Source of the DNA: Carcharhinus amblyrhynchos
Taxonomy: Eukaryota
Length of the DNA stretch: 64,000 nt
Direction of reading: 5' to 3'
NCBI GenBank assembly: GCA_965287045.1
Contig: OZ336870.1
Location: 148,056,001-148,120,000, forward strand
The position numbers and the translations under genes are program-made. Of the stretch, positions 9,621 to 50,305 are shown piece after piece. Positions within the stretch are counted from its first letter, which is position 1; each line of letters starts with the position of its first letter. A model generated the notes under the pieces. It searched no databases and was not told the origin of the DNA. It was given only the letters and a program-made list of their open reading frames with translations.

Positions 9621-9789
9621 AAAATAAGGGGGTGGTAGAGTTGGCAGAGATTAGTGTCTAAAATTGTTGCGCTTAATGGTGCACCTGAAAGGCTGTAAAG
9701 TGCTTAATTGAAAGATGATGTGCTATTTCTCAAGCTTAGTTGAGTTTCACTGGAATAATGCACCAAACCAAGATAGATGTCAGCTTCAG

Positions 9790-11822: not shown

Positions 11823-11824
11823 GG

Positions 11825-13010
11825 GGACAATGTCACAACTGTGGGGAAAATAGGCCACTTCAAAACAGTTTGCATTAAACCACTGACAGCCTGTAAAAAA
11901 GCGAAAATCTTAAAGCAGAGCCGCGTACATAAATGAAAGAACCACAAGAATAGGAATTAATCTTCTCCAGAGATATAGATGACACTGATAATGAGTCTTC
12001 AAGTTAAACTCAAGTGGATGGACTGAGTTTGAATTAGATACAAGAGCAGGGGTCCCTATTTGATTAGATGAAGTTAATTTCTCAAATAGATAACTTTGAA
12101 ATCCTTGTCAATTAAAGCCAACTCTAAACAAAGCTGAAAATAAGATTGAACAATCCTTAAACCTCTTGTCATTTAAAATCTGTACTGTCCTCTACGAAAG
12201 AGAAAGGCTTATCTAAAATTGAAATTAATTTGTATGGTGGAAGAAGTTGCGAATGAGAATTACATCACATAATTCCAAAACAAATTTGAAAAATTATTTA
12301 AAAGGCTAGGGAAAACGCATCACACTCAGGTGATGCTAAACCATTTTGTGTCTTTACACCAAGGAAAGTCCCTCACTCATGTTTAGACCAAATCAAGGTT
12401 GAAATAGAAAGAGTCCAGTGACCAGATGTTATCTAACCAGTCAACATGTCAACACAGTGGTGTGCAGGCATGGTTACAATTCCAAAACCAAGCAGCTCTA
12501 ATATTGTTGTATTGTCATTGAACTATTAATCCAAAGACCCAGGGGAATCCTCTGGGGATCTAGGTCTGAATTTTACCATGGTAGATGGTTAAATTTGAAT
12601 TTAATAAAAATCTGGAAGGAAAATTCCAACAATGACCATGAAACCATTGTCAATTGTTGTTAAATCCCATCTGGGATCCTTTAGGGTAGGAAATCTGTCA
12701 TTCTAACCTGGTTCAGTCTACACATGACTCCAGATTCACAGCAATGTGGTTGACTCTTAAATGTGATCGGAATAGCTGTTGGAAGCCCCAGTTCAAGGGC
12801 AATTAGGGATAAGTGCAGGCCCAGCTAAAGGTGCCCACATCCATGAATGAATAAAAGAAAAATTGGAAGGCATAGAAAGAACAAGATGCCATATGGACAG
12901 CATCAACCCATGAGAGACCCACATTTGCAGTTTCAGAACAGCCCTGAGTCCCTTAGTGTAGGTATGCCTGAATAAAAAATGAGTTCACCAAACCCATTTT
13001 TTAGATCACA
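11825..13010 (+). mobile_element. Gypsy/Ty3 LTR-retrotransposon gag-pol remnant (continues at ~15790-15940); SINE-like insert ~12500-12860
   Basis: CCHC knuckle (C-H-N-C-G...GHFKTVC), protease-like FELDTRAG, PRKVP, WCAGMVTIPKP, CHMD, and after the nested LINE, LRRFLGTVNQVGKF. Confidence 0.75.
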
Positions 13011-15790
13011 TAGTTTGATTTGATTTATTATTGTCACAAGTATTAACATACTGTGAAAAGTATTGTCTCTTGTGCACTATACAGACAAAACATACCATTC
13101 ATAGAGAAGGAAACGAGAGAGTGCAGAATGTAGTGTTACAGTCATCGCTAACTTAATGCAGGGTCAGTCCATTCAAAAGTCTGACAGCAACACAGAAGAA
13201 GCTGTTCTTGAGTGGGTTGGTACATGATCTCAGACTCTTGATTCTTCTTCCCAAAGAATAAGGTGGAAGAGAGAATATCCGGGTTCCTTAATTATGCTGG
13301 CTACTTTGCCGAGGCAGCAGGAAGTGTAGACAGAATCAATGGATGGAAAGCTGGTTTGAGTGATGGGTTGGGCTTTGTTCATGATCTTTTGTAGTTCCTT
13401 ATAGTCTTGGACAGAGCAGAGCCATACCAAGCTGTGATACAACTAGAAAGAATGCTTTCTATGATGCATCTGTAGTGTCGGCATGGGGGGACCAGGGCAG
13501 GTTGTTGGTTATTTGGAAATGTAACCATCCTGAATACCGTTGTGTTGACATGTTGACTGGTCAGATAACATCTGGTCACTGCACTGTTTCTATTTCAACC
13601 TTGATTTGGTCTAAACGTGGGTAAGAGACTTGTTGTAAAAAGGCAAAATGGTTTAGTATTAGCTCATAGGGTGATGCTTTTTCCCTAGCCTTTTAAAAAA
13701 TTGCTCGAATGACTCGAACCGTTCTACTTTGTTCCCATTGATATAGACGGACATGTTCTCCTTTAAGCTTTCTGAAGTCGATGACAATCTCCTTTGTTTT
13801 GTTGACATTGAGAGAGAGATTATTGTTGCCGCATCAGTTCACCAGATTCTCTATCTCACTCCTGTACTCTGTCTCATTGTTGTTTGAGATTTGACCCACT
13901 AAGGTGGTGTCATCAGCAAACTTGAAAATCAAATTGAGGAATTTGGCCACACAGTCATAGGTATATAAGGAGAATACTAGGGGGCTGAGAACGCAGCCTT
14001 GCGGGACACTGACGTTGACGATGATCATTTAGGAGGTGTTGTTGCCTCCCCTTACTGATTTGTGGTCTGAGAATTAGGAAGTTCAGGATCCAGTTGCAGA
14101 GGGAAGTGTCGAGGCCCAGACCATGGAATTTGGAGATGAGGAGTTTCCTGGAAATAATAGTGTTGAAGGCTGAGCTGTAAATAAATAAGAGTCTGACATC
14201 AATGTCCTTGTTATTTAGGTGTTCCAGGATTTAGTGCAGGACCAGGGAAATGGCATCTGCTATGGACCTAATTGTGGCAGTAGGCAAACTGTAGTGGACC
14301 CAGATGGTCCAGGAGGCTGGAATTGATTCGTGCCATGACTAATCTTTCGAAGCACTTCATGATGACAGATGTCAGAGCTACCAGCCAATAGTCATTTAGC
14401 ACACTGCTTAGTTTTCCTTAGGTACCCGGGATGATAATGGGGTATAATGTTAGCAAGTGTGAGGTTATCCATTTTGGCAGAAATAATGGTAGGAGGGATT
14501 ATTATTTAAAAGGCGAAAAGCTGCAGCATGCTATGGTGCAAAGGGACCTGGGGGTCCTTGTGCACGAGTCGCAAAAACCCAGTCTGCAAGTGCAGCAGGT
14601 GATCAAGAAGGCGAAGGCGAATGGAATGTTGGCCTTTATAGCAAGGGGGATAGAGTATAAAAGTAGGGAGGTCTTGCTGCAACTGTACAGGGCACTGGTG
14701 AGGCCGCAGCTGGAGTACTGTGTGCAGTTTTGGTCGCCACGCTTGCGGAAGGATATATTGGCCTTGGAGGGAGTGCAGAGGAGGTTCACGAGGCTGATAC
14801 CAGAGATGAGGAGGTTGGCCTATGAAGAGAGACAAAATAGACTGGGTCTGTACTCGTTGGAGTTTAGAAGGATGAGGGGGGATCTTATAGAGACGTATAA
14901 GATAATGAAGGGGGTGGATAGGGTAGAGGTAGAGAGATTCTTCCCGCTTAGAAAGGATAGCAGGACTAGAGGACAGAGCCTCAAGATAAGGGGGGTGCAG
15001 TTTAGATCAGAGTTGAGGAGGAACTTCTTCACTCAAAGGGTGGTGAATCCCTGGAATTCTCTGCCCGTTGAAGTGGTGGAGGCTACCTCGCTGAATATAT
15101 TTAAGTCACGGGTAGATAGGTTTCTGATAGGGGAATTAAGGGTTATGGGGGGAAAGCGGGAAAGTGGAACTGATCCACTTTAGATCAGCCATGATCTTAT
15201 TGAATGGCGGGGCAGGCTTGAAGGGCTAGATGGCCTACGCCTGCTCCTGTTTCTTATGTTCTTATGATGGTCATCTTCTTGAAACAGATAAAGACCTCAG
15301 ATTGTTGTGAAGAGAGGTTGTAGATGTTATCATCATAGAATCATCGTAGAAACCCTAATGTCTGTGAATACCCCTGCCAGCTGATATGCGCAGGATCTGA
15401 GTGCATGTCCGGGTACCCCATCCGGACCAGTTGCTTTTCATGGGTTGACCTTCAAGAAAGCTGCTCTGACATTTGCAGTATGACCCCAGATACAGTTTCT
15501 TCCAGGGTAGAAGGCATGCTCTCACTGACCTCTTGCTCAAAACAGATGTAGAACACGTAGAGCTCATCAGGGAGAGGTGCGTTGGAGCCAGCAATTTTAC
15601 ATGCCTTCATCTTGTAGCCTGTTATGTCTTGCAGACCTTACTGTTGTCGGCAGGGGCTAGTGTGGCTAGCCTGGCGCTCTAGTTGGCCCAGCACTATCTT
15701 TTGGCATCTTTGATAGATCACCTTAGATCATACCTGACTTTCTTGTATAGGTCAGTGTCGCCTGACTTGAACGCCTCAGACCTGGACTTC
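13010..15790 (-). mobile_element. Rex1/Babar LINE, degenerate, split by a CR1 insertion
   Basis: [23 protein letters not shown]...KFADDTT (ORF 13834-14028). 3' end matches copy 146-1072. The element resumes after 15265. Confidence 0.8.
14443..15266 (+). mobile_element. young CR1 3' fragment nested in Rex1
   Basis: ORF 14431-15183 is closely related to the 5950-7818 copy. TTCTTATG tail present. Confidence 0.95.
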
Positions 15791-16022
15791 AGCAAGCAGT
15801 GGATATCCCGCTGCATGCTGAAGTTCTAGGTGACCGGAATCACAGTGATCCACAAAGAAGACAAATATTAGAGAATTTCTGCACCTAAACTGCGAAGATT
15901 CCTTGGGACGGTGAACCAAGTTGGCAAATTTCTGAATATAGCAGAGGTCACCGGGTGGGTCGAGGTAAAACTTTTGAGATGGGAATTTGGCAACAAAATT
16001 GTTTTTTCTGGGCAACAAAAAT

Positions 16023-16310
16023 GGGTGGCATGGTAGCACAGTGGTTAGCATTGCTGTGTCACAGCGCCAAGGACCTAGGTTCAATTCCAGTCTTGAGTGG
16101 GGCTTGCACATTCTCCAGTGTCTGGAGTGTGAGACGAAACCAGGAAGAAACCCATGCAAAGGTATACAGGTTAAGTTTATTGGCCATGCTAAATTGCCAC
16201 TTAGTGTCAGGGGGATTAGCAGCTTACGGGGAGAGAGGGACTGGATGGGATTGATGTCAGTGCAGGTTTGATGGGCCAGTGGCCTCCCCTTGCACTGTAG
16301 GGATTCTATG
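16023..16310 (+). mobile_element. HE1-like SINE with CR1-type tail
   Basis: tRNA-like head and gcactgtagggattctatg 3' end. Confidence 0.8.
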
Positions 16311-16409
16311 AAAGAATTAAACAATTTTTCACCTCCTCTGAAATCTTGGTTCATTATTATGATAAAAATTAAAGACTACAGTGTTGCCCACTGGTCTGGG
16401 GACAGTAAA

Positions 16410-16890
16410 TTCTTTCATTGGAGGTGGGCATCACTGGCTAGACCAATATTTTTATTGTCCACACCTAATTGCCCTTGAATTGGTGCCTTGCTCAGCTGAG
16501 CCACTGCCTTGACCTGCTGCAGCCCAAGTGATGTAGGTACAACTACAGTGCTGTTTGAGAAGGAACTCCAGGATTTTGACCCAACGACAGTGAGTGAACA
16601 ATAATTTATTTCCGAGTCAGGATGGTGGGTGGCTTAGAGGGGAACCCCAGGTGGTAGTGTTCCCATGCATCTGCTATCCTGCCCTTCTGGTTGGTAGGCA
16701 TCATGGATTTAGAAGGTGCTCTCTAAGGACCCTTGATGAGTTCCTGCAGTGCATCTTGTAGACGAAACATTGTGCTGCCAATGTGCATTCGTGATGAAGA
16801 GAATGGATGGAATGTCAGTCAAGCCGGTTGCTTTACTTTGGATGGTGTTGAATTTTGAGTGTTGTTGGAGTTGCACTCATATAGACAACT
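16410..16890 (-). mobile_element. old CR1-clade 3' fragment
   Basis: Similar to the 3' end of the 2800-5250 element (attgtcc...cttgaa...ctgcag...gaactccaggattttgaccc). Confidence 0.6.
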
Positions 16891-17540
16891 CTATTTGAAG
16901 CTTACAATAAAGAATTGGAAGACCTGCATTACACAACACCTCCATTCAGTCTGCAGGCATGATCTTGAGCTTCCATTGACCTGCCATTTTAATTCTCCAC
17001 CTAGCTTTCCAAGCTGGAGTCTCATTACCTTGGCCTCTGTGCTGTCCCAGGGAAGCTCAACATAAGCATAAGGAATTGCACATCTTTTTGCAGTTAGGGA
17101 CTCCCCCAGCCTTCTGAACTCGACATTGAATTCAACAAATTTCAGACTGTAAACTCTGTCTCTTTCGTTCCCACCCTAGCCCCTTAACCCCCCAACCCCT
17201 TAACTCCCCCCGCCCCGCCCTTTTCAGTGGTTTTATTTTTTCTTATAGAAACTGATCTGCTCTGGGCACTTTTTTGTTTCTTTTCCTGCCTACCACCATT
17301 GCCTTTGGTCTTGTAGGACTAAATGTTCTGTAACTTAATCTCCCCTGTCTTCCACACTGGCACAGACCTTCATTTTGTCCTCCTTCCACTTGCCACTTAT
17401 TGTAATTTTCTGATGAAAAAATCATCAACCTGAAGCATTAACTCTGTTCCTCTCTCTACAGTTGCTGCCTGACTTGTTCAGTGTATCAGTATTTCTGTTC
17501 TTAGTTCAGATTTCCAACATTTGCAATATTCTGCTTTACC
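16890..17540 (+). mobile_element. Penelope-like element remnant (GIY-YIG end and terminal repeat)
   Basis: HLHSVCRHDLELPLTCHFNS-like frame, followed by a degenerate terminal repeat (ctgatga...cctgaagc ttaactct...gctgcctgact) seen dispersed elsewhere in the window. Confidence 0.55.
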
Positions 17541-17966
17541 ATCCCAAAGTAAGCTTCTTCCTTCTGCACTGTGGAGGAATATGGTTGGTCACATGAGAAA
17601 ATACCTGTGTTAGATACAAACTTCCTTTATGTTGCTTACTCCCTACACTGATGGCCCAGTATTTGTATATTCCACACATGAAATATGCTTCTCAGAAGAG
17701 AATCTGGAAAGTAAATCATATTCCTATTCACATGTAAATATTAATAAAATCCCTTATTCTGATTTCACAGCACACTGGGTTTTCTCCTCAATGTTTTATT
17801 ATTAAGACAATATCCAATGTGTCTATTGATGATGCATTCATTTTCACATTTTCTTATTTAGAGCAAAGTATAGAAAAATTTTATTATATTGAAGGTTATG
17901 TTACATCAGTGAAAAATAATGTAAATTGCAGAACAAGTATTTCATGTGCATCACTGTACATTCCAG

Positions 17967-18134
17967 GTATCTTTACAGACACCTTCTTATGTTCTACAAC
18001 AAAAATTCTGATGTGGTGAGCCAGTCTATTTTTTGCATTGAATCTGGAAGAAAAGTTCTTACTGTTAAGGATCGTACTAATTTTCACCTTTATCTGAATC
18101 AACTGCCAAAAGGAGCTGCACAGATTAAACAATT
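17967..18134 (+). CDS. ADAD1: ADAD1 coding exon
   Basis: ttccag/gtaagt boundaries. Encodes YLYRHLLMFYNKNSDVVSQSIFCIESGRKVLTVKDRTNFHLYLNQLPKGAAQIKQL. Confidence 0.95.
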
Positions 18135-19669
18135 GTAAGTCGGGAAATAGAACAATGTTTTGAAATAGTCTGTTCCTGAAATGGTGTAGATTTGTATCTG
18201 AGAGATATTTCTTATTTTATACGAATGGCACCCATATATTTTGTTGAAGATTACATTCCCAAATGATGACTTGTTTGAGGGCCATTTTCATTAAATACCA
18301 GAAGGCAATTATGTTTGCTTGTTTTTAACTATAGCATGTCCAATGAACATAAGTTTCAAAAGAAAGAATGTATGTGCACTGAATATTTTACATTCTCTGT
18401 ACTTAATCAGCAACTTCAACATTAGAAAATTATTTCATAATATAAAGTTTACAGACCTGATTAGCATATTACAAACTCCATTCAGTACACAAATCATCTA
18501 TATATGTTAAATTTGCTATTTATACTTGTTATGTTCAGTAATCTGTCATTTTATTTAGGTCGCAGCACAAAAGGATTTCCATTATTAAGTGAGCAGTTAT
18601 TGGTGTCGCTAGTATTAGCTCTATACGCCATACTCCTAGATTGAGCTACATAAACTTAAAAGTTCGCCACTGTTTTCCGTTGACTGAAGTTTGCATTGAT
18701 CAGTTGATTATGGGTAGTTTACTGATGATCAACTTTCCTTTGTGCACAATTCCTGCTGCTAATGAATAACAATAAAAATAACATATTTAATCCTTTCAAC
18801 TCCAAGGGCCTTGACCTAACATCATTGAGCTCAGCTAGCTGTTTTGTTTTTACTTTGTATTACAGCTGTGTCCACCATTATCAGTAAGATAGTAAGAAAG
18901 AAGCTTGTTGAAAATTGGGTTCTTCTGGCTGCCAGTGGTGGAGGAGCCAGGAAATCTCAATTCCAAAGTTTCTAGGGAAGAGATGCAGGTGCCAAACATT
19001 TTTTAATTATCTTGGCTTTATTATTAAGCTTGCTTCTAGAACCCCACCCATAATTCCTTTGACAGATGATTACTCTTGGACATCGGAGTTCAATGTAATT
19101 TTTCAGGAGTGGCCAGTGATCCTATACCTAAGTGAAATATGTAACACAAGCATCTATAGAAGTAAATCTCACTGAGCCTTGGATGTATGCATCAAGTGAA
19201 CTCTTATTACATAATATTTCAGTGAACTTTTCTAAAAACAAAACTTTCTAGCTTTATGTTTACAACAAACTATTTCAGGTGAAATCCATCAGATTTCTGC
19301 AAATGCATAGCAAAACTGCCAGCACGCACTTGCAAAAAACAGATTAATATTTTAGGCTGGTTTCTGACTTCTAATGGCTGATTGAGACTCACCCACTATT
19401 GTACTTTGAAAAATCAAACATTAACTTACAATGTAAATTAAGGCAATTGCAGGTATTCAAATCTTCAAGTTCTTTCCTGTTGTTTGAGTATTTGTTGTTT
19501 GTTCTGCTCTCAACCCCACAAAGTGATCCACTTATTTTTTAATTATGATAAAACCTTAAGCTCAAAATGTTAACTTTTCCATTTGCTTTATAGTTGCTAA
19601 GTGACCTGCTGTAATTTCCACTATTTGCTCTTTAATCTTAAAAGGAAACATGTAACTTTCCTCACATAG

Positions 19670-19902
19670 GCATTTGGCTCCTCACTCGATATCTACCTTT
19701 CATACTAACAAAGAAATGGAACTTCATGTTATTTTGGATGGAAAAGTGTACGCAATTAGTCATTGCAGTCCTGAAGTAACCAGTAGTAAAGTGTGTAGCA
19801 TGTCCGCCAGTGATAAACTTACTCGCTGGGAAGTGCTTGGAGTTCAGGGAGCGCTACTGAGTCACTTCATTGAACCCATTTACATCAACAGCATTCTTAT
19901 CG
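19670..19902 (+). CDS. ADAD1: ADAD1 coding exon
   Basis: catag/gtgagt boundaries. Encodes HLAPHSIS...[35 protein letters not shown], containing the ADAR-family WxVLGxQGALLS motif. Confidence 0.96.
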
Positions 19903-20779
19903 GTGAGTGTGATATTTCAACATTTGGTATTCTGCTAAAATGTATTGCATTTAGCTTTCATTATTAAAGAACTTGATACATTTTGAAAATTTTTGCACTT
20001 ATTAAAAATTTTTTAGCTTGTCAAAAGGTTGTATTTTGTGATCCTTTTATAAACTTCACTCACATTGGTCACCGAAGGTGACTCCTGTCAAGTTTGTTCC
20101 ACTCGAGCTTCTGTTATTTCCAATTCCTGATGAAATCAAGTAGCAGTTGCTTCAAGTATAATTTGCAGTAGCACCTGAAACAACTTTGCTGAACTCTTAA
20201 TGCATTACTTTGCCACGATATGTATTTTGAGGACAAATCTTGAGGGCTTTTATGTGCATTAAAGAGAGGACAATCTTCTAACCTAGAAATCATTTTGGGG
20301 TTTTGTAAAAGTTAGATAAAGTAGATGACAAGGTGCATAAAATTTAAAATCTAAGGCCAAATAAATAAACCATGAGACATCATGAGTGGAGTTCTCTAAT
20401 CTTGTTCATTCCCGCTCTGCTCCATTCACTGCAGTGGCACTGGAGAATCCAGCCCAGGACGAGTTTGGATGTTTCCAGTGTACATCACCAAAGGTTTGCT
20501 GAAGAAAAGTGACAAGAATTTTAAATGGTCGTGACAGTTTGTACTGCATTAGTATCTTGTCATGTTGTTTTACTTCACATGCATTTAAGTGCAAATAAAT
20601 CTAAACAAGCTGTTTATCTTGTACTTATCAATCTGGCAGGATACTATATTCTGTCTTCTGAAACAAAGGAAGATTATAGTGGGGCATCCTACTTATTTTG
20701 CAGAAAGTAGTTTACAATGAGTCACTGTTATACACTTATTCATGTAAGCACAGAATAAATTCATTGAGTTCAGTTTGGA

Positions 20780-22775
20780 AGTGGGAAAGTTCAAATTGAA
20801 GCCAAGGTGTTAAAGTTGAATAAATGAAACTATGAAGACACGAGGGACAAATTGGCTGAGGTGCATTGGGAAAATACATTTAGAAAAATGAATGTGCATA
20901 GGTTACAGTCTTCAAAGAATTATTACATGGCTTACAGCACCTATACATTTCTTCATAGTGCAAAAACTTAAAGCCAGTTAACCATTGTTGACAAAGTTCA
21001 GGAATGTATAGAATTTTAAAAAAAGTTTATAAAGTCAATAAAAATAGTAGTAAACTCGAAGATTGGAAGGTTTTTAGAATCACCAAAGGAAGGCCAACAA
21101 ACTGATAAAGAAAGGGACAACAGAATATAAACACAATCTAGCAAAAAACATGAGTGTAAAAGCTTCTATAGGTATGTAAGAAGAAAGTGTTTGGCTAAGA
21201 CGCATGTGGGTCCATTCCAGGCAGAGTCAGAAGAATTTGTAATAGGGAATAGAAAATGGTAGGGAAGCTAAGTGATTTCTTTGTGTCTGTTTTCACTAAG
21301 GAAGATGCAGTAAATCTCCAAGATGTAGAGATTCAAGGGATTAGGGAGAATGCAGAGTTGAAGGAAATTAAAGTAAATTAGTTATATTGGGGAAATTAAT
21401 CTGACTGAAAGCTCATAAGTCCGTGGGACCTGATATCATGCATCCCAGAGGTTTGAAAGAGGTTACTATAGAGATGATGGATGCATTAGTGATCATCTTC
21501 CAGAATTTTATAGATTGAAAGGTAGCAAATATCATGGCACTATTTAAGAACAAAGGGAGAGAGGAAACCTGTTAGCCTTACATCAGTGGTAGAGAAAATG
21601 CTGGAATCTATTATAAAGGATGTGATAAATAGACATTTGGACAATTGGCATAGTCGGCGTGGATTTACAAATGGGAAATCATATTGACGAACATAGTGTC
21701 ATAGAGGTTTACAGCATGGAAGCAGGCCCTTCCACCCAACTTGTCCATGCTGCCCTTTTTTTTAACCACTAAGCTAGTTCCAATTGCCTGCGCTTGGCCC
21801 ATATCCCTCGATAGCCATCTTACCCATGTAACTGTCTAAATACTACTTAAACAACAAAATTGTACCCGTCTTTACTACTACTTCTGGCAGCTTGTTCCAG
21901 ACACTAGCCTCCCTTTGTGTGCCCCTCTGGATCCTTTTGTATCTCTCCCTCTCACCTTTAAACCTATGTCCTCTAGTTATAGACTCCTCTACCTTTGGGA
22001 AAAGATGTTGACTGTCTAACTGATCTATGCCCCTCATTATTTTATAGACCTCGATAAGATCACCCCTCAGCCTTCTACGCTCCAGAGGAAAAAGTCCCAG
22101 TCTATCCAGCCTCTGCTTATAACTCAAACCATGAAGTGCTGGTAGCATCCCAGTAAATCTTTTCTGCACTCCTTTTAGGGTAACCAGAACTGTACACAGT
22201 ATACCAAGTGTGGCCTTACCAATATTGGTGTTTTTTTTTGAAGATGTTATTAACAAAATTGATAAAGGAGAGCCAATGGATATAACATATTCGGACCTTT
22301 CGAAGGCTTTTGACAAAGTCCCCCACAGAAAGTTAATTAGCAAAATAAAAGCACATGAGATAGGAGGCAACATACTGTCATCAATTGAGGATTAGCTAAC
22401 AGGTGGAAAACAGTAGGAATTCAGGTTATTCTCACATTGACAGGCTGGGCTAGTAGGGTACCACGAGGTTCTGTAGTTGGGCTCTAGCTATATCAATTAC
22501 CTGGATGTGGGGACCAAATTTAATATTTCCAAGTTTGCAGATGATAAAAGCTAGGTGTGAATTTGTGAGGAAGATGTAAAGTAGCTATAGGAGGATTTGG
22601 ACAAACTTGAGTGAGTGGGCAAAAATATGACAGATGGAATATTAAGTGGAAAAATGTAGAGTAATCCATTTTGTTAGAAGGAATGAATGTGCAGAGTATT
22701 TTCTAATGGTGAGAAATTATAAAGTGTAGATGTACAAAAGGTATCCTTGTCCATAAGTCACTGAAGGCTAGCATG
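20780..22775 (+). mobile_element. degenerate CR1 ORF2 (interrupted by an opposite-strand CR1)
   Basis: Fragments such as KAFDKVPHRKL (ORF 22210-22395) and KFADD. Confidence 0.85.
21695..22220 (-). mobile_element. CR1 3' fragment nested antisense
   Basis: VQKRFTGMLP...RRRLRGDLIEVYKIM in ORF 21843-22373, with a CR1 tail at ~21700. Confidence 0.9.
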
Positions 22776-22899
22776 AGCCTGTTAAAAACCTGTTTAAAAT
22801 AAGTTTAAAGCACTTTACTCTTTGTAGAACTGTTTAAAGCATTTATTTATTGTATTTACTGCTTTAAGAATTCTGAGGGTGTGGTGAAAAGGCATTTGT

Positions 22900-23630
22900 G
22901 GACCAGCCTGCTTTAAATCAGCGCCAGGTTTAAAAGGAGGCCTGGTGTAGACAGCGGGCAGCGTCTGAGCGGGCAGCGGAGTGAGTGGGAAGCAGAGTGA
23001 GTTAATAGGGCTTAATATCAAAAAGGGCTGGAAGGAAAAAAGGCCAGGTGAGTTTGTTTGAAAAAAAACAAGGAAAAAAAATTTTTTCAAAACTACTACA
23101 GCAAGAAACAAGGAAAAAAAATTTTTCCCCATAAAAAATTACAGTGAATAATGGAGGGGCATGTGATGTGTGGTTTCTGTATGATGTGGGAACTGGCGGA
23201 CCCCAGGGTACTTCCCAGTGACCATGTCTGCAGTAAGTGCAGGTTGCTGGAGGAGCTCCAGCTCAAGGTGGATGAGCTGGCCTCTGAGCTACAGACACTG
23301 AGGCTCATCAGGGGGAGAGAGGGTGCCCCTAGACTGGCTAAATCTAAGGGTCAGGGACAAAAGGGGGCTGCTGGGAGGAGGAGGAAGGGGGGTGAGGAGC
23401 GGAGGCCTCAGCCTCTTAATCTGCATAACAGGTTTGAGGTTCTTGCTTCCAGTCTGGAAGAGGACGAGGCAGGTGAGGTTGGTGAGCAAACTGCACACGG
23501 TACAGTGATGCAGCAGGACATAGGCAAAGAGAAGGGGAAAAGGAACGTAGTAGTGATTGGAGATAGTGGGGTGAAGAGTATTGACACTGTCCTTTGTCAC
23601 AATGACAAAGTGCACAGAAGGGTGTGTTAA
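22900..23630 (+). mobile_element. CR1 5' end: 5'UTR plus ORF1 (Zn-finger/coiled coil, start of GDSL esterase), 3'-truncated
   Basis: ORF 23151-23630 has CGFC...HVCSKC, a leucine-zipper-like LEELQLKVDELASEL, NRFEVL, and VVVIGDS. The upstream UTR is GC-rich with short repeats. Confidence 0.85.
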
Positions 23631-24531
23631 TAATGAAACTCTAGAATATTTTGAATCAGTATGCTTTGGATTTGGCAAGATTTGAAGTCTTCAGCTGACA
23701 AAGCTGACCACAGTGTTTAAAATGCCAACAAAGTAAAATGATTAGCAGATTCTTTGCTCTTTATTAAATCCAAGAAATTTATCTGCTTGACCTTTTGAAC
23801 AGAGATTGTTGATTGCTTTCATACATTTTTGTGACTTCTATCAATGATGATGAGCTCTCTGATGTCGCCACATCAGAAAAGGGTTCCAGCGCCCCTACCC
23901 TACTGTCCTGTTTTAAATCCACTCTAACTGTTGGCTACACAAATGGGAGAGTCATTTTTTTTTACTGTTTCATAACTCTTCACAATCTGTAGCAATGATT
24001 TGGATATGGGGAACAAATGTAATGTTTCACAATTTACTGATGACACAAAACTTTGTGGGAATGTAAGTTGTCAGGATGATGCAAAGAGGCTTCGAGGAGA
24101 TTTAGATAGGCTAAGTAAGTGGATAAGGACATGACAGATAATGAGGAAGAATGTGAATTTATCCAATTTGGTAAGAAAAAATATGGATGCATTTCTTCAT
24201 TGAAGAGAGATTGGGAATTTTTGATGTCCAGAGAAACATGGGTGTTCTTTTTCATACGTCACTGAAAGTTAACATGCAAGTGCAGCAAACAACTAGAAAG
24301 ACCAATGGTATGTTGACCTTTATTGCAAGGGGAATTGAATACAGGAGTAAGGAATCTTGCTACATTTGTATAGAACTTTGGTGAGACCAAATCTGTAGTA
24401 TAGTATGCAATTTTGGTCTCCTTACTAGGGGATGGACCTACAGAGGGACTGTAGTGGTGTTCCACCAGACTGATTTCCAGGATGGCAGGATTTTCCAATA
24501 AGGAGAGATTGAAGACGTGGGGCTTGTATTA

Positions 24532-24845
24532 GAATCATGGAACCCTTACAGTGCAGAAGGAGGCCATTTGGGCCATCAAGCCTGCACTGATAACAATCTC
24601 ACCTGGGCTCTATCCCTGTAGCTCCACGTATTTGCCCTGCTAGTTCCCCTGACACTAAGAGGCAATTTAGTTTGGCCAATCAACCTACCTCATCTTTAGA
24701 CTGTGAGAGGAAACCAGAGTACCAGGAGAAAACCTACGTAGACACAGGGAGAATGTGCAAACTCCACACAGTCACCCGAGGCCGGAATTGAACATGGGTC
24801 CCTGGCACCGAGAGACAAGTGCTTCCCACTGTGCCACCATGCTGT
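24532..24845 (-). mobile_element. HE1-like SINE
   Basis: Reverse complement of the SINE head (ccactgtgccaccatg) and CR1-type tail (cagtgcagaaggaggccatt). Confidence 0.8.
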
Positions 24846-24871
24846 TCTTTAGGGTTTGAAAAAAAGAGAGA

Positions 24872-25543
24872 TGTTGTGGGACAAAATTAGCTGTCAAGCA
24901 ACTTTCAGACGTCCCCTTCAAATACCAGACAACAAATTTCAGAGTTTTTTTTAAAATCGGCCTTTATTTCTTTGAGCGATAGCAAGGAATCTGATATGCC
25001 AGCTGATGGCGCAGCAGAGAGTCTGGAATAGAGCATTACACAGACAGTTGTACTTCGAGGTCTTACATAAGCATATATCAATCAGAGATTTACATTTGCT
25101 CAAAAGTTATCTGTATCAACTCGCAACTAACAGTTAGGATTACATAAGGTATAACATAAGGGGATGGTTGCCTAATAACTTGTGCATGTTTATCTAATAT
25201 ATCACTAAGCAAGTATTTATTTCTATATATCTATGAACTTCTAGACCCAATTGTGATAGCTACATGTCGACCTAGTGGTATATCAACCCCTTATGTCATC
25301 CCATGTTCATGTCCTTTGTTAAAACAGACACTAACAAACTGCAGATGCGCACAATTCAAGAGGCTTTGTGTGTAGGTTGTGTGACTGAGCTCTTCTTTAT
25401 AATTGGAAGTTTTGTGCCCCTTAACTCTTAACTGCATCTGCTTTAATCAAGACCTGTAGTTTTCTCAGTTTTCCTTTGTGTGACTTGAGCTTAGAAGCTT
25501 GCAAGTTGTGATTTTTAATCTGACGTGATGATTAACCCTTTCA
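24872..25543 (-). mobile_element. solo LTR (ERV/LTR-retrotransposon)
   Basis: TG...CA termini (minus strand TGAAAGGG...CCCACAACA), near-perfect 5-bp TSD agaga/agagg, CCAAT+TATAAA at ~25396-25406 and AATAAA at 24963-24968 in the correct order on the minus strand. It interrupts a CR1. Confidence 0.75.
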
Positions 25544-26054
25544 AGAGGAGACCCGAAGTGTGCAAAATTCTTACATGTCTTGACAAGGTAGATGTAGGAA
25601 GAATGTTTTCTCTGGTTGGTGGAGAGCAGCGGGGACGATCTAGAACTAGAGGGTGCAGTCTCTGAATAGGAGATTAGTAAGCAATTAAAGACCAAGTTGA
25701 AAAGCATCTTCAGTAAAGAGGTGGTGAATATTTGGAATTTTGTATCCCAGAGGTCTGTGGAGGTGCAGTCATTGAGAATGTTCAAAGCAGAGCCGATAGA
25801 TTTCTGGATACCCATGACTTCAAGGGATGTGGGGATAGAGTGGTGAGATGGAACATCAGCCAAGATCTAGTAAAATGGCAGAGCAGACTCAAGGGGTCAA
25901 ACGACCTCCTCCTGCTCCTATGTTTTTGTGCTTTTAAACAATGTTAAAAGTTTTCCTATGATTTCCCCTTCAATTTGTGTCAATGCTTATCTGTATTATT
26001 GTGCATCATGCTTATAATTTACTTCTAAAAATCATATTTACTTTGACGTTCCAG

Positions 26055-26292
26055 GTGATGCTAACTGCATAGACACACGGGGAGTGGAAGTTGCAATTAA
26101 ACAGCGTGTGGATGACTCATTAACTTCAAGGCTTCCAAATTTCTACATTGTCAGCAAACCGCAAATATGCCTGACAGAAACCGCATATCCTTGTCAACCA
26201 AATCCTATTCCTAAAACCCTCAGCCTCAACTGGTCTCAGTCGGATTGTTTGGTAGAAGTGGTGAATGGTGCAACTGGAAGGATTGCTGGAAG
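26055..26292 (+). CDS. ADAD1: ADAD1 coding exon
   Basis: ttccag/gtaata boundaries. Encodes (G)DANCIDTRGVEVAIKQRVDDSLTSRLPNFY...LSLNWSQSD...VVNGATGRIAG. Confidence 0.95.
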
Positions 26293-27644
26293 GTAATACC
26301 ATTAACTTACTATATTTCAGAAAATGCAGCTGGTGTGACATAATCAGTGGAGAGAGAAAGAATTAATATTTTGAGTATGTGTGCCTCTAAACGTTAACTG
26401 CTTCTCTCTCTATAGTTGCTGCTAGACCTGCTATATTTCCAGCATCTGTGGTATTTTGCTTTAATTATAATTCACTTTAGATTATCTTCTGGTGCAGTGG
26501 ATTTGCTCATTAAGAAGTACTAATGCCAGAATCTGAATTCTCGCTGCTTTTTAGTAGTGCAAGCTGTTCTCATGAGATCACTGGATATGTTAATTGCATA
26601 GTTTGCTGTTTTTCATTAGCTGGCATTATTAATTGACAACACTGGTAAACTGTGATTTGTGATTGAATACTACCTCTATGCCCCTCAACTTAAATCCCCA
26701 TTTCTCATTAATTCATACTGATATCAGAGCCCTACTCTCCTCCAGATACTTGTCACTATGTTCCAAGTATTTAAACTTATAAGCTGTTCTTGTTTTTGTT
26801 AGTGCTACTCTTTTTTTCAGCACTTGGATTCAGAGGTTTGTTTTTGAAGAGCTTCATGATGGTTGTTTTGTTTGTTTAAGTTTTATGCCCACTCAAGGAT
26901 TAAGGTTTTTTGAAGAGATTTTTGAATGGATATTTGATTTTTGCAGTATCGTGAGCATCTCAAATACTTGCTAATGTTATTACAGGGCTCATGAGTTCTG
27001 TCATTAGTGAGCTGGCATGGGGTTGCGGGCTAAGGTGCCTAACACTTGTGTAGAACTGGGCTGATGTCCTGGGGAACTGTGGCAGGCTGCCTAACCTGCC
27101 TGCCTAGGTATCTGTCAGCCTTTGTTCCCACCCTGAGTTTGCCCCTGGGGGCAGCAGTCCCAATGCAAAAATAGTGGAGGAAGGTACTGTTGGACAGGAG
27201 GTGAGATCATTGTGTGTTGGAGGTCTCCTGATTTGTGACTTCCCTCTTAAAGGGCATAGTCCAGCCAATGTAGTTCTGAATGGACTTCGATTACTTTATG
27301 CATATGGAGAATAAATGTCTGTCAGAATGTTCAGAAGAAATTGTCTGCAGTGGTTATCTTGATATTTATTTCAGCAGTTTTGTCAGATTTTGAGGACAAA
27401 TGTTACATAACAAAACACCTGAGTTTACAGGTTCTAGTAAAGAATAGGGTGTTTTAACCCCTTCTACCCCTCCAACTTGGTGAAAATCCTGGAGATAAAT
27501 TACAGCAGGGAACTTAGCCACTCAATTCCCAATCTGAATCATGGATTGCAATTTTTAATTGTAAATGGTAAGAAAACTCACATCTAGCCACTGATGTCCG
27601 CTATACAGATGTCAGTATCCACCGGAAACCTCTGACCTCGTCTA

Positions 27645-27755
27645 TGCCTGGAATTTTCCAGGCCTGCTGCAGTGAATGGCGTTTTGGCTGAGTGCCAAAT
27701 TCTCCATTCTCGCTGGCAGCCAGGGTGGGGTGAACGAGATTGGCAAATCCTGCCA
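27645..27755. mobile_element. short MITE-like element with imperfect terminal inverted repeats
   Basis: g-cctggaattttcca ... tggcaaatcctgcc ends, similar to Harbinger-type non-autonomous elements. Confidence 0.35.
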
Positions 27756-28839
27756 TGATGTCATCTGCTGTTTTAACCTAAAGGCTGAGCGGAAGACCAG
27801 TGGTGGCTTTCCCCACTTTTTCCCAGGGTAAAAAGTAATGAACAGTGGACAAAGCTGACCAGATTCTCCACATGATTGGTGCTGTAGACTGTTTTTAATG
27901 GAGCCATGAGCTATGCAACATTAGTAATGCTGCAAACAGCCTGGCAGGGAAGGGGTCCTGCCTAGTTATGTAAAAGAAAAATACTGTGCTGTGCTTCAAA
28001 AGATCTTTGGTTTCCAAAGTAACAGCTTTCTGATCTGTTGTCAATGCTTCCTTGCAATTTGGGCTTCAGTGTTGCTTGCTGTAGATTGGAGAATTTTTTT
28101 TTGGAAAATTAAACTTTAATCATAGAATTTCTAAAAGAATATCATTCTAAAATGCAAAGTGCAATAATCTTCAGGTTCTTTGTAAGTTACACTCTTGAGG
28201 TGCTTCAATACAGTCAAAGAAACATTGGAGACATTTCAAAATGGCCCTTATAAATAGTGCAAGGGTATTTAAAAGCTGTCTGCATTGTTCAAAATGCACT
28301 CCGAGGTGTTTCAGCACAACTGAGATGCATGTAATATTCATTGTATACATTCGGTGAAGATTGAAGAATATGTTTTACAAGGAATGGATGTTATACTATA
28401 CAATGTATAATGTCTTACGCAGCAGTGAATCTGTCTGGTACTAGAATGTTCCTTAAGGTCATAAGTACTGTTCCCTCTAGGCCATACCACAGCCTAAAAC
28501 TCACTGGGCAGGCTGCCGGCAAATTGGTCCATTTGTGTTACTGCCAGTGCAATGCAGCACAAAAAATTTAAAGGGACTTCTCCAAAAGAAAATTAAAGGA
28601 TATGTTGACCATGATGTTTAATCATTGAAGTCAGTTGACAGCTAATTGCTGTAAAACATCCTTTTCTGTTGCTTGAAAACTTTAGGGCAAAAGTTTGTTT
28701 CAAAAACTTCTATAACTGAAGTGTAAAGGAATTCTGTAGGCATTCGTTTTTCTTACAACCAGTGCTTACTGTTATTGCTAATGTTGTGTCAGGAATGGAT
28801 TGTTGGTTGTTTGTACAATAAATATTAGGCCAATTGGCC

Positions 28840-29680
28840 AAAAACTTTATTAAAGAAGTAGGTTTTAAGATGTGCCTTAAAGCAGTAAGGAGGGGTAGAT
28901 TTGGAACTATTTAAGATGGAAATTCCAGATTTTCAGGTCTAAGCAATTGAAGGCATAGCCACCAATTGTAGAGAAATTAGAATTGGAATGCTCAAGTAGC
29001 CAGAATTAGGTGAGAGCAACTATCTCTGAAGGTCGTGGGGCTAGAAGAAATTACAGGGATAGAGTGGACTGATGGAGGCAGTTGAAAACCAGCTTGAATG
29101 TGTCAAAATTGAGGTCATGATTGATTGCCAATTTGGTCAGCAAGCATAAAGGTGGTGGATGAATGGATCTTGATGCAAACAAAATATCAGGATGCAGAGT
29201 TTTAGATATGGGCAAGTTTACAGAAAGCAGTGTGTGTGAGGCCAACTGCAATTGTATTGTCATAGTCGAGAGGTGGCAAAGGCATGAATGAGGGTTTCAG
29301 CAAAAGATGTTGCAGAGATGGAAATAGGCAGTCTTAATAGCACAAATGTGTGATCAGACATTCATCTCAGGGTCAAGTATGGCAACAATGTTATTAATAG
29401 TTGGTTTTAATTTTAACTTGCCAACTAGAGGAATTAGTCATCAGGGAAAGGAGTTTGTAGTGGGAATGGTGTAGACTAAATGACAGATAGTTCCCGGTTT
29501 TCTCTTGCTCCCCTTTCTTGAATCTGATGCTGCTAACTTCCAATTTGCTAAGACTGGTCAAGAATCTAGCAAATTATAGAAAATCATAAGCAAAACATCG
29601 GTTATCTCTGCAGCTGCTTCTTTGAGAACCTGAGGATGTAGCCCATCAGGGCCTGTCACTTTATTGGCTCTTGGTTCAAG
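28840..29680 (-). mobile_element. highly degenerate LINE remnants (L2-like, then CR1)
   Basis: CR1 fragment VTGPDGLHPQVLKE at the end of ORF 29558-29941. The upstream part resembles an L2 3' region. Confidence 0.5.
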
Positions 29681-31032
29681 TTGCTCTATTGATAGATACT
29701 TTAATTTGCTCACTCTCATCTCCTTGGGCCAGGACTTTACGTTCCCATTCTTCCTGGTTGAGTTTGGTAATAGGAGCAGAAATTTTGTGGTAGGCCCAAA
29801 TCTTGTTTCACATAAGGGTGAAGTCTCAGCATGATTGTCACTGTCCCATGCCAATGAGGTAATGGGAATCTCAATGTTCAATGTCATTATAATGAATATG
29901 AATGTAATTGTCAGACCTCTATGCCTGATCAACCTCCCCATTTTAATCTGTTCATGTCAGAGTGCATCCTAGCATGAATTACAACTGGTCTCCCACAACT
30001 TGCATCTGGCGGGCAAACGTACCAGAGGAACTCAGATGAGTGCATTGCTTAGCAGAAATGGATCATGACAGGGCAATGCTGTGGGGTTCTATTTTAGCTT
30101 TTATACACTGGGGCCCAAAAAAATGCACCCTGATATTTAAAAGTACTAAGTTGCTGGCAGAATGGGCTCTGCCAGCATGAGATTGTGGAAGTGCCCTTTT
30201 CAATTTTCCTGAAATGTCCTTAATATTAAGGTAGAGAAAGCCACCATTGGTACAGTGACTTCAACCCCACTTTTGTGGCCTGCTGTCATGTTATGCAAAA
30301 CAAAAGGTAAAAGTCAATCCTTGATTGTCATCTAACTCTGCAACTTACTTTGTGTTCTTTACGTGTGAAGACAGACAAAATGTTTGTTCAAAGTTCTGCC
30401 ATTTCTTCATTCCCCGTGATGATTTCTGCCCTTATGAGACCAACTTTTACTTTAGCTAGTATGCTTTTAAAAGCTCCTCCAACCTTTGCTGTTTCCTGAC
30501 TTATTTAATCTCATTTTATTTTTTCCCCTTCCCATCAATGTTCTGGTCTCCCTTTGCTGGTTTCTACAGTACTCTCAATCTTCAGGCTTTCTATTATTCT
30601 TCTAAACCTTCTTTAATCTTTTGTTATTCTTAACTTCCTCAGTCAACTACGGGTGGATCTTCCTTGCTTAGTTTTTTATTTTTTAAAGAATATATTCATA
30701 GGAACATTTTTAAATAATGTTTCACTGCTTATTTGTCATACCTTTTCTGTCTTTTTATCCAATCAACCTCAACCAGCTCTTCTCTCAAACAAATGTATTT
30801 TATTTTGTTAAAAATCCAGTGCAGCCCTCCCTCCATGATACATACCACTCCAGTGGTTTGGGCAATAATTTGAAGCTGTTTCTAGTAAGATGAACTTGTA
30901 AGAATATGATGAATACATTTTAATCTACTGAAACAAACCCATCTTGAATCTTAAACTTATAGGCAATTCTTATGCACTGATTTTATTATTTTATTGTCTT
31001 TTCAAAAAAATGGTATTTGTTCTGTTTTTAAG

Positions 31033-31165
31033 CTCTCCATTTAAAAGTGGTACCTCCATGACCAGCCGCTTATGCAAAGCTGCCATGCTGAGTCGCTTTT
31101 ATCTTGTTGCAAAAGAAGCAAATAGAGAAGATTTGTCTACGGTTCCAACATATCATGCAGCAAAG
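31033..31165 (+). CDS. ADAD1: ADAD1 coding exon
   Basis: tttaag/gtaaag boundaries. Encodes [44 protein letters not shown]. Confidence 0.96.
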
Positions 31166-31821
31166 GTAAAGTTGCTTTCTGGTTGAGGAAACATCTCTCA
31201 GTCAAATGTACCCTAGCCTTTTCAGAAAAATATTGTTCGATTAAATTGTTTTAGGCTGCCACTCTAGACTCCATCCTTCTCCCTGCAATAGCAAGTTCAC
31301 AACCTTGCTGTCACATTTGATCCCAAGATAATCTCATATACATTACATTTTGAAGGTTTATTTCCACCCTACTCTCCCTTCATGCAGTGACTGGCAATTC
31401 CCAGCTTTTGTGTGTTCAGTTCCATAGATGGAGCAATTTCTTTGCTAAAGTTCATGTTGACTGAAAAGTCATTGCGCAAAAATAGTTCTTTCACCCACTG
31501 CCATTTCTAACTTAATAGCATTATTGGTACATCAAAGTTTGTCTGTCATTTGCTTGATATCTGTGTCTCTAGTTTCAACATGCAGTTTGTACCTATTGTA
31601 GTGGAAGTTATTTGCAAGTGGAGTGTCTGTTTGTATGGATTTCCTTGTAGGTTGGTTTGCTGTGCATTTGTTGGGCATTCAACATGATTAAAATCTCTAA
31701 TCTGCTTCTTTAACCAATTGAAATCACTGGTCTGTTTCTTTAAAGAAACTGATTTTAAAACTTTTACTTCAGATTTCCAGCATTCACTTTTTTATGTCTT
31801 TCAATTTTTCATTCCTTTCAG

Positions 31822-31938
31822 ATGATGGCAAAATCATATCAAGAAGCAAAAGCTTTGCTGAAATCATCTCTGGTGCATCATGGTTTTGGTACCTGGCTAG
31901 TCAAGAATCCAAATGCAGAAGTGTTCCATGTGCAATGA
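31822..31938 (+). CDS. ADAD1: ADAD1 terminal coding exon
   Basis: tttcag acceptor. Encodes MMAKSYQEAKALLKSSLVHHGFGTWLVKNPNAEVFHVQ* (ADAR C-terminal YQxAK...GxGxW motif). Candidate ATTAAA at 32051-32056. Confidence 0.95.
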   Translation: MMAKSYQEAKALLKSSLVHHGFGTWLVKNPNAEVFHVQ

Positions 31939-45340: not shown

Positions 45341-45342
45341 CG

Positions 45343-47749: not shown

Positions 47750-48182
47750 TTTATTTGTGTTTATATCTTGAATCAGAACACTGTAAATTTTAAATACATA
47801 GCAGAAACATTAATAACTTATAGTGAAGAAACATGTCATATATAAATAAGGTAGATTAAATGCAGTGTACTCTTAACAATTGTGACATTTTTGAATAAGT
47901 TATAAATATCAACATCATAGTTATCCACATAAAAATATCCTGTTTACAAAACACTAATTGTAATAAACAAGGCTAGGTTCAGGCACATTACAAACAACGC
48001 TAGTGCAACAGCTTTACATTCAGCACTAGTGATTAGTTTGTAATCTTATATTTTCAGAGCAGCCTTCATATGATTATTAAAAACACAAATTAAATAGTGA
48101 AGTATAATTTTCCAATCTGAATTTTCAAGTTACTTTATGGCAGCTTTGTTGACAACATGCATAGCTTAGAGTGTCTTTATGT
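47750..48182 (-). promoter_or_regulatory. IL2-like 3'UTR with AU-rich elements and poly(A) signal
   Basis: Minus-strand ATTTA at 48091, 47903, 47857, 47843 (within nonamer TTATTTATA), 47791 and 47784. AATAAA at 47750-47755. Confidence 0.75.
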
Positions 48183-48308
48183 TCATTGAACGCTGTCGAC
48201 ATTTGCATTCCGTTCTTTTTTCATTTTCTGTGAGAACAATATCAGCTGAGACATGAAGTCAGTGAAGTTCTTCTTTTCGCTTTCACATTTACATGCTGAA
48301 TCACGTGC
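48183..48308 (-). CDS. IL2: IL-2-like cytokine exon 4 (helix D)
   Basis: ttttcag acceptor. Encodes ARDSACKCESEKKNFTDFMSQLILFSQKMKKERNANVDSVQ*, with the Cys-x-Cys-Glu, FxxF and helix-D Gln pattern of the IL-2/15/21 family. Confidence 0.85.
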   Translation of the reverse strand, partial: ARDSACKCESEKKNFTDFMSQLILFSQKMKKERNANVDSVQ

Positions 48309-48581
48309 CTGAAAACAAGATTACAAACATTACTTTCTTTTAAAGCATCAGTATTCTCATCTTGGATGGACGTGGTCCTCCACTTTAGTATACTGCCACC
48401 TATTGTTACTTACTTTGTGTCATCCATCTTCTAGGTATTTGTTTCTGTTCTTGCGTTTCAAGAAAGGCAATTATGTTAAAAAGCTAGCCCATTCTGAAGA
48501 AATAACCATTACTTCAAATAGAGTATTTAATTTGACCAAAGTGTAATATTTTTACTTGTTAGCTCTTGATCTTGTACTTAC

Positions 48582-48710
48582 CAATTTCTTCATATTCCTA
48601 CTTATAATACTTAGGCGGTTTATACATTTCTTTCGCTCACTGGTAAGCTCCATGCAGTTCCGTTTCAAACTTTGCAATTCTTTTATAAAGAGGCACACAG
48701 AATAATTGAG
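48582..48710 (-). CDS. IL2: IL-2-like cytokine exon 3 (helices B, C)
   Basis: tttttcag/gtaagt boundaries, 129 nt, phase 0. Encodes LNYSVCLFIKELQSLKRNCMELTSERKKCINRLSIISRNMKKL (helix-B ELxxL as in IL-2/IL-15). Confidence 0.85.
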
Positions 48711-49722
48711 CTGAAAAATGAACAAAATTAGAATAAAATGTTATATTTGGCATGACCCATTGAGATGCAGCATCCTAAAGCACAAAGATATAATTTTTTT
48801 TGCTAAAACAGGAAGGAAGATGGAAATATTTTCTATTTCAGAAAATGCTATTGGTGTAAAAGTATAATTTGAAATATTGTGAATAGTTTTTAAGCTATTG
48901 AAGAAAGTAAGTGACTGAGTGTAAAATCATGCTTAGCTTTCAGTTTCACTTATGCCTATAACATTTACTATTTGCAACTGATGAGGGCAATAGTTAACGG
49001 TTATCACCTTTGATTGATATCAGCTTGATACTTCAACTTTTTTTGAACTAGCAATGCACCTATATTCCTCAAAAGAATGATGTATGTGGTTACTGCTTGC
49101 TATAGATTAAATCCTTCAATATTTCTTCAATATTGTACTTCAATATTTTTCTACTTTAACCACAAACATGATTTAGCAGAGAAATAAATATATTTTTAAA
49201 ACTTTAACTGTCACTTTAAAGTGGTAATGCAACAATTAAATCTTAAACAAACATTAAAAATGAATTTCAAAATCAGAACAGACTGCTAATTTGATACCCC
49301 AGAGTCAATGGAATATATATCTGCTTTTGATGACAATCCGGTTACAATTTTATCATGAAATCTTTCTCCCATTCTCTGACAAAAATGAATTGATTCACAG
49401 CCAGCTTTCAGCCTCAAGTAGAGCAGTCTAACTTTTGCAGTGTTCTATAGTTGCCAGAGGTATATTTTATTTTCTTAACTGCTACATTCTTTATTCTTCT
49501 ATTTATATAAGGTTTACCATTTCAAATTGTGGCAACCTTTGAATCATTATTCAAAAACAACTTACTATTAGCATCAACTTAACAATCAGGAAAGAAATAC
49601 TTAAAGATAGGTCATTAACTCAGGCTATATTTCATTGTATAACTTTTGCTTTTTCTTTATATTTGCACACAAATCTTACAACAATGTAAATTTAGACTTG
49701 TTTCTATTTAAATCATGCTTAC

Positions 49723-49761
49723 CTCTACATTTACAGGAGTGCATAGAGGGCCCCAAGTGTC
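49723..49761 (-). CDS. IL2: IL-2-like cytokine exon 2 (AB loop)
   Basis: ttttccag/gtaagc boundaries, 39 nt, phase 0. Encodes DTWGPLCTPVNVE (LxTP motif of the family). Confidence 0.85.
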
Positions 49762-49867
49762 CTGGAAAATGCAATACAACACAAATTAATCTTTAATAGA
49801 TGCAAATAAATAAATACGAGCTGTAACATTAAAAACACCAACACATACTTCAAGGACTAAATCATAC

Positions 49868-50011
49868 CAGCCCAATTTTCTTGAGGTCCTTAGCATTTTT
49901 GATAATTTCAGTCAGGGCTGCACCGCTGTGTTGGTTGGCACCTGTGAAAGTGGTGTAAGTTAACACAACAAAGAATGTGCACAGTAACTGCTTCATGATC
50001 ATAGACATCAT
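49868..50011 (-). CDS. IL2: IL-2-like cytokine exon 1 (signal peptide + helix A)
   Basis: Encodes MMSMIMKQLLCTFFVVLTYTTFTGANQHSGAALTEIIKNAKDLKKIGL with a gtatga donor. Hydrophobic signal peptide, 106-bp first intron, TATA ~55 bp upstream of the first ATG. The true start may be a later Met (e.g. 49996). Confidence 0.87.
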
Positions 50012-50064: not shown

Positions 50065-50305
50065 AATTTATACCCTTCTTGGGGGGAAATCGTGGGAGTG
50101 TTCAGTAGTCACTAGTTTAGTTTTTTGTACCTTTTATGATTGATGAATAATATTAGACTTTCCTCTTTGATGACTCTCTGGAATTTCTTCAAGCCTGGTA
50201 GTAGTAGAGGATGCTGGTAAAATCCCTTTTTGGCTAACCTCTGACTAAAACCACTAAACCCATAAAGTTGCACACTTTCATATGTGAGCATGACTACAAT
50301 TTTCC
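50065..50305 (-). promoter_or_regulatory. IL2-type proximal promoter/enhancer
   Basis: Minus strand: GGAAAATTGTAGTCA (NFAT:AP-1, 50291-50305), GGGATTTTAC (NF-kB, 50217-50226), AAGAAATTCC-AG-AGAGTCA (CD28RE/AP-1, 50171-50189), GAGGAAAG (NFAT, 50158-50165), GTATAAATT (TATA, 50065-50073). Confidence 0.88.

Follow-up and report, generated by a model that had tools for sequence, protein, structure and literature searches.

A very probable IL2 orthologue in the shark Carcharhinus amblyrhynchos, with a CD28RE/AP-1 promoter element matching that of mouse Il2

IL-2 and IL-21 were first thought absent in the elephant shark and were then identified by Dijkstra (Nature 511:E7-9, 2014; PMC6238376). This history, which the sequence-only reading of the present locus had also given for shark IL-2, is borne out by PMC6238376. 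The elephant shark gene, also called IL-2-like, is listed in PMC7658486. In a 2018 tree it received weak support (ultrafast bootstrap about 61), and the same study did not detect IL-2 in data from catshark, blue shark, dogfish or whale shark; no separate IL-2Ralpha has been reported in cartilaginous fishes (PMC6238376). A further article names shark interleukin 2 as an example in its title (Dijkstra, Immunogenetics 73:35-51, 2021; via PMC10768021). The accessible parts of PMC4690019 and PMC9138301 hold nothing further on shark IL-2, and the main text of PMC3964593 does not contain IL-2 as a whole word. The presence of IL-2 in sharks, and hence of a mammal-like regulatory T-cell circuit, had been disputed, and protein trees had given it weak support. 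The IL-2 gene class in cartilaginous fishes is nevertheless already known, and the candidate described here is a further member. The 2021 article by Dijkstra is said to cover sharks and rays and to propose loss of alpha-chain binding.

Like the candidate, elephant shark IL-2 was predicted from a cartilaginous-fish genome alongside IL-21; it comes from another species, and the likeness is one of description, not residue by residue. Teleost IL-2 (grass carp 7CJN/7D9M, trout, zebrafish, stickleback and pufferfish) shares with the candidate four phase-0 coding exons, the plan of the IL-2/15/15L/21 family (PMC3894449 supplement). Mammalian IL2 shares its position between ADAD1 and IL21 and, in mouse, a 22-nt CD28RE/AP-1 element, but the candidate differs from it in having a short exon 2 of 13 amino acids and no Pfam IL2 match. 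Shark IL-15, represented by Mustelus asterias XP_078066976.1, resembles the candidate over helices B to D; unlike the candidate, it has a long multi-exon leader, keeps Tyr28, E47 and E54, and occupies its own locus 7.25 Mb away.

The window is a stretch of 64,000 nucleotides (C1:148056001-148120000, C1 being the contig that holds it). Four minus-strand exons of 144, 39, 129 and 126 nt, with GT-AG sites and phase-0 introns of 106, 1012 and 273 nt, had been proposed in it, and re-reading the sequence returned the identical model (Table 1). The joined frame of 438 nt encodes 145 amino acids followed by TGA, with the same translation as before, and, as had also been claimed, the 109 stop-to-stop frames of at least 80 amino acids include none of the four exons. 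All three introns start with GT and have a pyrimidine-rich CAG end. Judged by hydrophobicity (best 9-residue Kyte-Doolittle mean 3.0 at the N-terminus), the first exon encodes a leader, so that the family feature of four phase-0 coding exons plus leader is present. The predicted mature protein of ~120 amino acids is basic (22 K+R, 13 D+E) and has two N-glycosylation sequons. Six ATTTA pentamers, a number reached by 44 of 2000 shuffles, lie in the putative 3' UTR. Searched against the 2.92-Gb genome, the 3-kb locus has a single match, itself. Four of eight listed sequencing runs were compared with the locus; two of them, putative RNA runs from one study, gave one 212-nt contig (48057-48268) that lies within exon 4 and the putative 3' UTR, has no junction and is neutral on expression. 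At the level of sequence, a real four-exon gene with predicted splicing is thus confirmed.

Table 1. Features of the candidate IL2 gene and its neighbours (positions are those of the window unless a segment or contig is named)
Feature	Position	Strand	Basis or remarks
Coding exon 1, encoding the leader and predicted helix A	50011-49868 (144 nt)	-	hydrophobicity; hydrophobic moment 0.65
Coding exon 2, encoding the A-B loop; contains LXTP and a Cys in place of the family Tyr28	49761-49723 (39 nt)	-	motif definition of PMC3894449
Coding exon 3, encoding predicted helices B and C; contains F69, E72, Cys67, Cys80 and Cys90	48710-48582 (129 nt)	-	compared by eye with PMC3894449, Fig. S6A
Coding exon 4, encoding CxC-E and predicted helix D (Q131), and the stop	48308-48183 (126 nt including stop)	-	sequence; tblastn
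Putative 3' UTR, AU-rich, with AATAAA at 47755, one TTATTTAT (47849) and 6 ATTTA over 428 nt	47750..48182	-	sequence
TATA box 61 nt upstream of the start ATG	50067..50072	-	sequence
Putative NFAT-type core (GGAAA) immediately downstream of the composite element	50159..50165	-	matches start of NFAT/AP-1 probe of PMC3167847
CD28RE/AP-1 composite element (CD28 response region), 22 nt, equal to mouse Il2 probe	50189-50168	-	by-eye comparison
Putative kappaB-like site, weak	50220..50226	-	motif scan
ADAD-type deaminase-domain exons	5627..31938	+	Pfam A_deamin, ADAR2 matches in PDB; ADAD1/TENR by synteny
IL21-like exons (120, 42, 117, 96 nt)	L031:9951-9832, 9730-9689, 4349-4233, 3598-3503, possible fifth from 2864 (C1 about 148.343-148.350 Mb)	-	

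The spliced mature product aligns with the M. asterias IL-15-like protein over helices B to D with a z of 8.0 (0 of 2000 shuffles reach this score); shark IL-15 was the only outside sequence scored against the candidate, so the term best similarity refers to that one comparison. The M. asterias protein itself matches IL-15, grass carp IL-2 (7CJN; identified as such in PMC11966240) and IL-21 in PDB. Conversely, exon 4 of the candidate is the second-best tblastn match of shark IL-15 in 584 kb (E 1.5). Four family motifs defined in PMC3894449 are present, namely LXTP (LCTP, 54-57), F44 (F69), D/E89 (E113) and Q108 (Q131). Together with the alignment to shark IL-15, these motifs identify the predicted protein as a short-chain gamma-c-type cytokine. 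Helical amphipathicity, a weak proxy for a four-helix fold, is modestly above that of shuffles (70 of 2000 reach it).

The same source also defines two cysteine pairs (PMC3894449), which are off their canonical place in the candidate. Its mature part has six cysteines (55, 67, 80, 90, 110 and 112); the first exon-3 cysteine, which teleost IL-2 has, is missing, the second is shifted by one, and compared with teleost IL-2 Cys55 and Cys90 are extra. Mammalian IL2 likewise departs from the ancestral pairs, and because both mammalian and turtle IL-2 lack a cysteine pair (PMC3894449), the displacement does not exclude membership in the IL-2 family. The end of helix B reads E-L-x-x-L-K-x-x-C, as in all four teleost IL-2 rows of Fig. 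S6A of PMC3894449 (by eye; E-L-x-x-[LV]-K-x-x-C across teleost IL-2), and the spacing of E-L and Cys is identical in grass carp IL-2. A CxC before helix D is common to three of the four teleost rows and carp, that is, to carp, trout, stickleback and pufferfish IL-2 (by eye). Both likenesses are weak, because gar and chicken IL-2 have CxxC, avian IL-15 also carries a Cys at the helix-B position (by eye in the same figure), and Cys110 is missing in one of two related shark genomes.

Single exons gave no match to Pfam (IL2/IL15) or to PDB cytokines and no relative in protein libraries and Atlas, and a word search with exon 3 returned three candidates, none of which was scored. The one phmmer match of exon 4 among 1.84 billion proteins, a 2149-aa protein matched in six short stretches, was set aside as a repeat artefact. 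Across the whole genome the Pfam IL2 profile has four matches, all with E above 1 and none at the candidate locus. A likeness to IL-4 in helix A, noted at first sight, was dropped, since locus and promoter point to IL2.

Adding 520 kb beyond the window brought the sequence examined to 584 kb, and the gene order is ADAD-type (+), candidate (-), IL21-like (-), BBS12 (+) and FGF (+). In human, IL2 lies between ADAD1 and IL21. The ADAD-type gene has a catalytically dead HAV motif, where active ADARs have HAE, and its stop at 31938 lies 16.2 kb from the candidate; the tail-to-tail arrangement with ADAD1 put forward earlier therefore stands, the name ADAD1 being assigned by synteny. Relative to ADAR2, the same gene has Ala for a Cys in its SxSDK motif. 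Elsewhere in the genome, A_deamin exons at C45:1.73-2.06 Mb occur in at least two copies with identical scores (1,730,608 / 2,048,719; 1,729,712 / 2,044,815) and reflect either a tandem duplication or an assembly duplicate.

The sequence-only reading would have given up the IL2 name if the protein grouped robustly with IL-21 and no second cytokine gene lay upstream; a second, IL21-like cytokine gene is found there on the same strand, followed by BBS12 and FGF. It lies at C1:148,349,951, 244 kb upstream of the candidate, has a splice donor following helix D and possibly a fifth exon, and gives a weak Pfam IL15-family match (E 0.048). Compared by eye with the rows of Fig. S6A in PMC3894449, its product resembles IL-21 in its leader, its A-B loop and a basic helix C. 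The four modelled exons contain only two mature cysteines, and an E47-L48 pair is present, unlike in most IL-21. A word search with exon 1 of this gene returned no database relative, and neither a motif scan for the last exon nor tblastn with the candidate detected it. The gene was recovered by a scan of the 584 kb that looked for leader exons with a short LXTP-like exon after them, a pattern modelled on the candidate, which matches itself by construction. Among 37 exon-2 candidates, two loci have a first intron shorter than 200 nt, the candidate and the IL21-like gene, both on the minus strand; the exon 1 plus exon 2 pattern alone is not rare, with four matches in ten shuffles of the 584 kb (0-1 each).

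BBS12 is a 719-aa single-exon frame at C1:148.63 Mb (Atlas score 0.98), and the FGF gene, which we take to be FGF2 by synteny, lies at C1:148.80-148.84 Mb. In fish, the IL2/IL21 locus is the interval from TENR to BBS12 (PMC3894449 supplement), and IL2 and IL21 are co-localised from cartilaginous fish to humans (PMC9465101). IL15 of this genome lies at C1:155.356-155.405 Mb on the minus strand; its exons are 76-92% identical (best stretches) to the M. asterias IL-15-like protein.

Of all features of the candidate gene, the promoter identity stands out most. The 22-nt composite element lies 178 nt before the ATG and about 96 nt before the TATA box. It agrees at all 22 positions with the mouse Il2 CD28 RE probe printed in PMC12043515 (by eye) and at 21 of 22 with the CD28RR probe of PMC3167847. 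According to the latter source, IL2 activation requires two composite sites, of which the CD28RR element, at -147 to -163, is one. Throughout the 2.9-Gb genome the 22-mer has one exact match, one match with one mismatch and two with two, compared with none for the reversed control and 0.0006 exact copies expected by composition. None of 100 window shuffles matches it within three mismatches. With the query shifted by one base, the element is absent from the IL21-like promoter (best 14/22) and from a 50-kb IL15 stretch (best 17/22). The 22-mer points specifically to IL2. Because the lead came from the known mammalian element, the match is the outcome of a targeted test and not of a blind scan. 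The GGAAA that follows it is presumably an NFAT core motif. Among the papers listed by our literature searches we found none that reports a CD28RE in a cartilaginous fish, which is a weak negative.

Locus order, the separate IL21-like gene and the CD28RE/AP-1 element all support the earlier proposal of a cartilaginous-fish IL2 orthologue, and we regard the candidate as very probably an intact shark orthologue of IL2. Against this reading stand the absence of cytokine matches to single exons, the displaced cysteine pairs with Cys110 missing in one relative, the loss of Tyr28 and D/E54 and the modest amphipathicity. The promoter identity and the ADAD1-IL2-IL21-BBS12-FGF order strongly support orthology in this species independently of the fast-evolving protein.

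Locus and promoter carry this verdict, as pairwise scores do not separate the paralogues: z is 3.8-4.8 to the IL15 model of this genome and 4.2-4.5 to the IL21-like model. That the candidate is IL-21 itself, or a tandem IL21 duplicate, would agree with the latter score and with its lack of Tyr28 and D/E54, a trait of most IL-21 (PMC3894449), and E35 with R99 could form the E7+R68 motif of IL-4, IL-21 and IL-15L (by eye). E47 does not discriminate here, because the IL21-like gene has it too. However, IL-21 is the gene nearest BBS12 and has a fifth coding exon after helix D, and it is the second gene that fits, with its IL-21 leader start, basic helix C, post-helix-D donor and Pfam match; in the candidate, coding sequence stops in exon 4, and the Il2 promoter element is present there but not at the second gene. 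The IL-21 reading is thus largely refuted already, and we give it very little probability. Equally improbable in our judgement is an IL-15 or IL-15L paralogue, or an IL-2-like cytokine specific to cartilaginous fishes that uses another receptor. In its favour, the highest measured similarity is to shark IL-15, but IL-15 was the only outside comparison scored, with no IL-2 sequence alongside. IL15L was not located in this genome (three weak matches, one of them IL15); in other vertebrates it sits at PLEKHG2/SUPT5H (PMC3894449 supplement). Moreover, the candidate has a short single-exon leader, in contrast to the multi-exon leader and separate locus of IL-15 here, and its promoter is of the IL2 type.

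A decaying IL2 orthologue, with an open frame but with expression or activity lost, is very unlikely in our view, although several observations are in keeping with it: no junction is seen in reads, Tyr28, D/E54 and the canonical cysteine spacing are lost, and close relatives show many residue-changing differences and one lost cysteine. Two related genomes cover the IL2 locus at about 97-98% identity. Among 40 of the 220 differences, a filtered set with few coding changes, those in exons 1 and 2 alter a residue in six of seven cases in one relative and four of four in the other; such changes would fit fast cytokine evolution and also relaxed selection. On the other side, splice sites and frame are intact here, the gene is single-copy in the genome, and the promoter element is unchanged since the split from mammals. 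Among 12 of the 14 indels relative to the two genomes, the sole coding one is an in-frame 6-nt change that deletes codons 109-110, and all 11 non-coding ones have lengths not divisible by three.

The candidate keeps one, E47, of the three key IL-15Ralpha-binding residues (Y28, E47 and D/E54 correspond to C55, E72 and N79), compared with all three in the IL15 of this shark. Teleost IL-2 keeps Tyr28 and the acidic residue 54 and binds IL-15Ralpha (PMC3894449), whereas the candidate has Cys and Asn there. With only one residue kept, the protein may therefore signal without an alpha chain, and judging from these positions we lean slightly toward weak or no binding to a sushi-domain IL-2/15Ralpha chain. 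Such losses lower the expectation of alpha-chain binding but not that of orthology, because mammalian IL-2 also lacks D/E54 (PMC3894449) and trout IL-2B has lost residues of the IL-15Ralpha-binding type (PMC3894449, PMC7658486). For the IL-2Rbeta motif D11 + N65, the candidate residues are D42 (E in both relatives) and N92, about one helical turn off the exon-anchored register; E35 + R99, as an E7+R68 motif, fits as well (by eye). The Pfam IL2RB_N1 profile has no match anywhere in the genome, and its control was also unmatched.

By extension from mammalian IL2 biology, the gene would be silent at rest and turned on in T cells by antigen-receptor and CD28-type signals, which would bring Rel/NF-kB, AP-1 and NFAT to the promoter. 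Its mRNA would be short-lived, and the product, a secreted and possibly glycosylated four-helix protein of about 120 amino acids, would act on lymphocytes via an IL-2Rbeta-like chain and the common gamma chain, Q131 being in place. We tentatively suggest an alpha-chain-independent shark IL-2, one that could have retained the mammalian co-stimulation switch letter for letter while dropping the alpha-receptor patch and rewiring its disulfides, with a Cys at the Tyr28 site. If so, the gating of IL2 transcription by CD28 would go back to the first jawed vertebrates. Sharks would then lack alpha-chain capture, through which IL-2 can favour regulatory T cells, and their IL-2 would perhaps bind its receptor in an older E7+R68 mode. 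The exons, the promoter and the paired IL21 and IL15 genes are exact reagents for testing how T cells are co-stimulated and how the alpha chain is used in the oldest lineage that has adaptive immunity.

The surrounding sequence is rich in repeats, with about 42% of the 584 kb self-repeated. A 100-N assembly gap at window positions 56491-56590, the sole gap in the 584 kb from the window start to BBS12, may hide a further gene. Overlapping frames on both strands at 62086-62650 include a stretch that resembles a coiled coil and match nothing in Pfam below E 0.1; they are probably a transposon remnant. Between the IL2 and IL21-like genes lie broken retrovirus-like fragments (L013, about 2150-7700, minus strand) with zinc-knuckle, RNase H, integrase and envelope-like parts (by eye). 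Near-identical LINE reverse-transcriptase pieces, presumably of the CR1 type, recur in the window at 5874-7724, 14422-15183, 36422-37171, 44061-45575, 54721-55662 and 60155-61015 (by eye).
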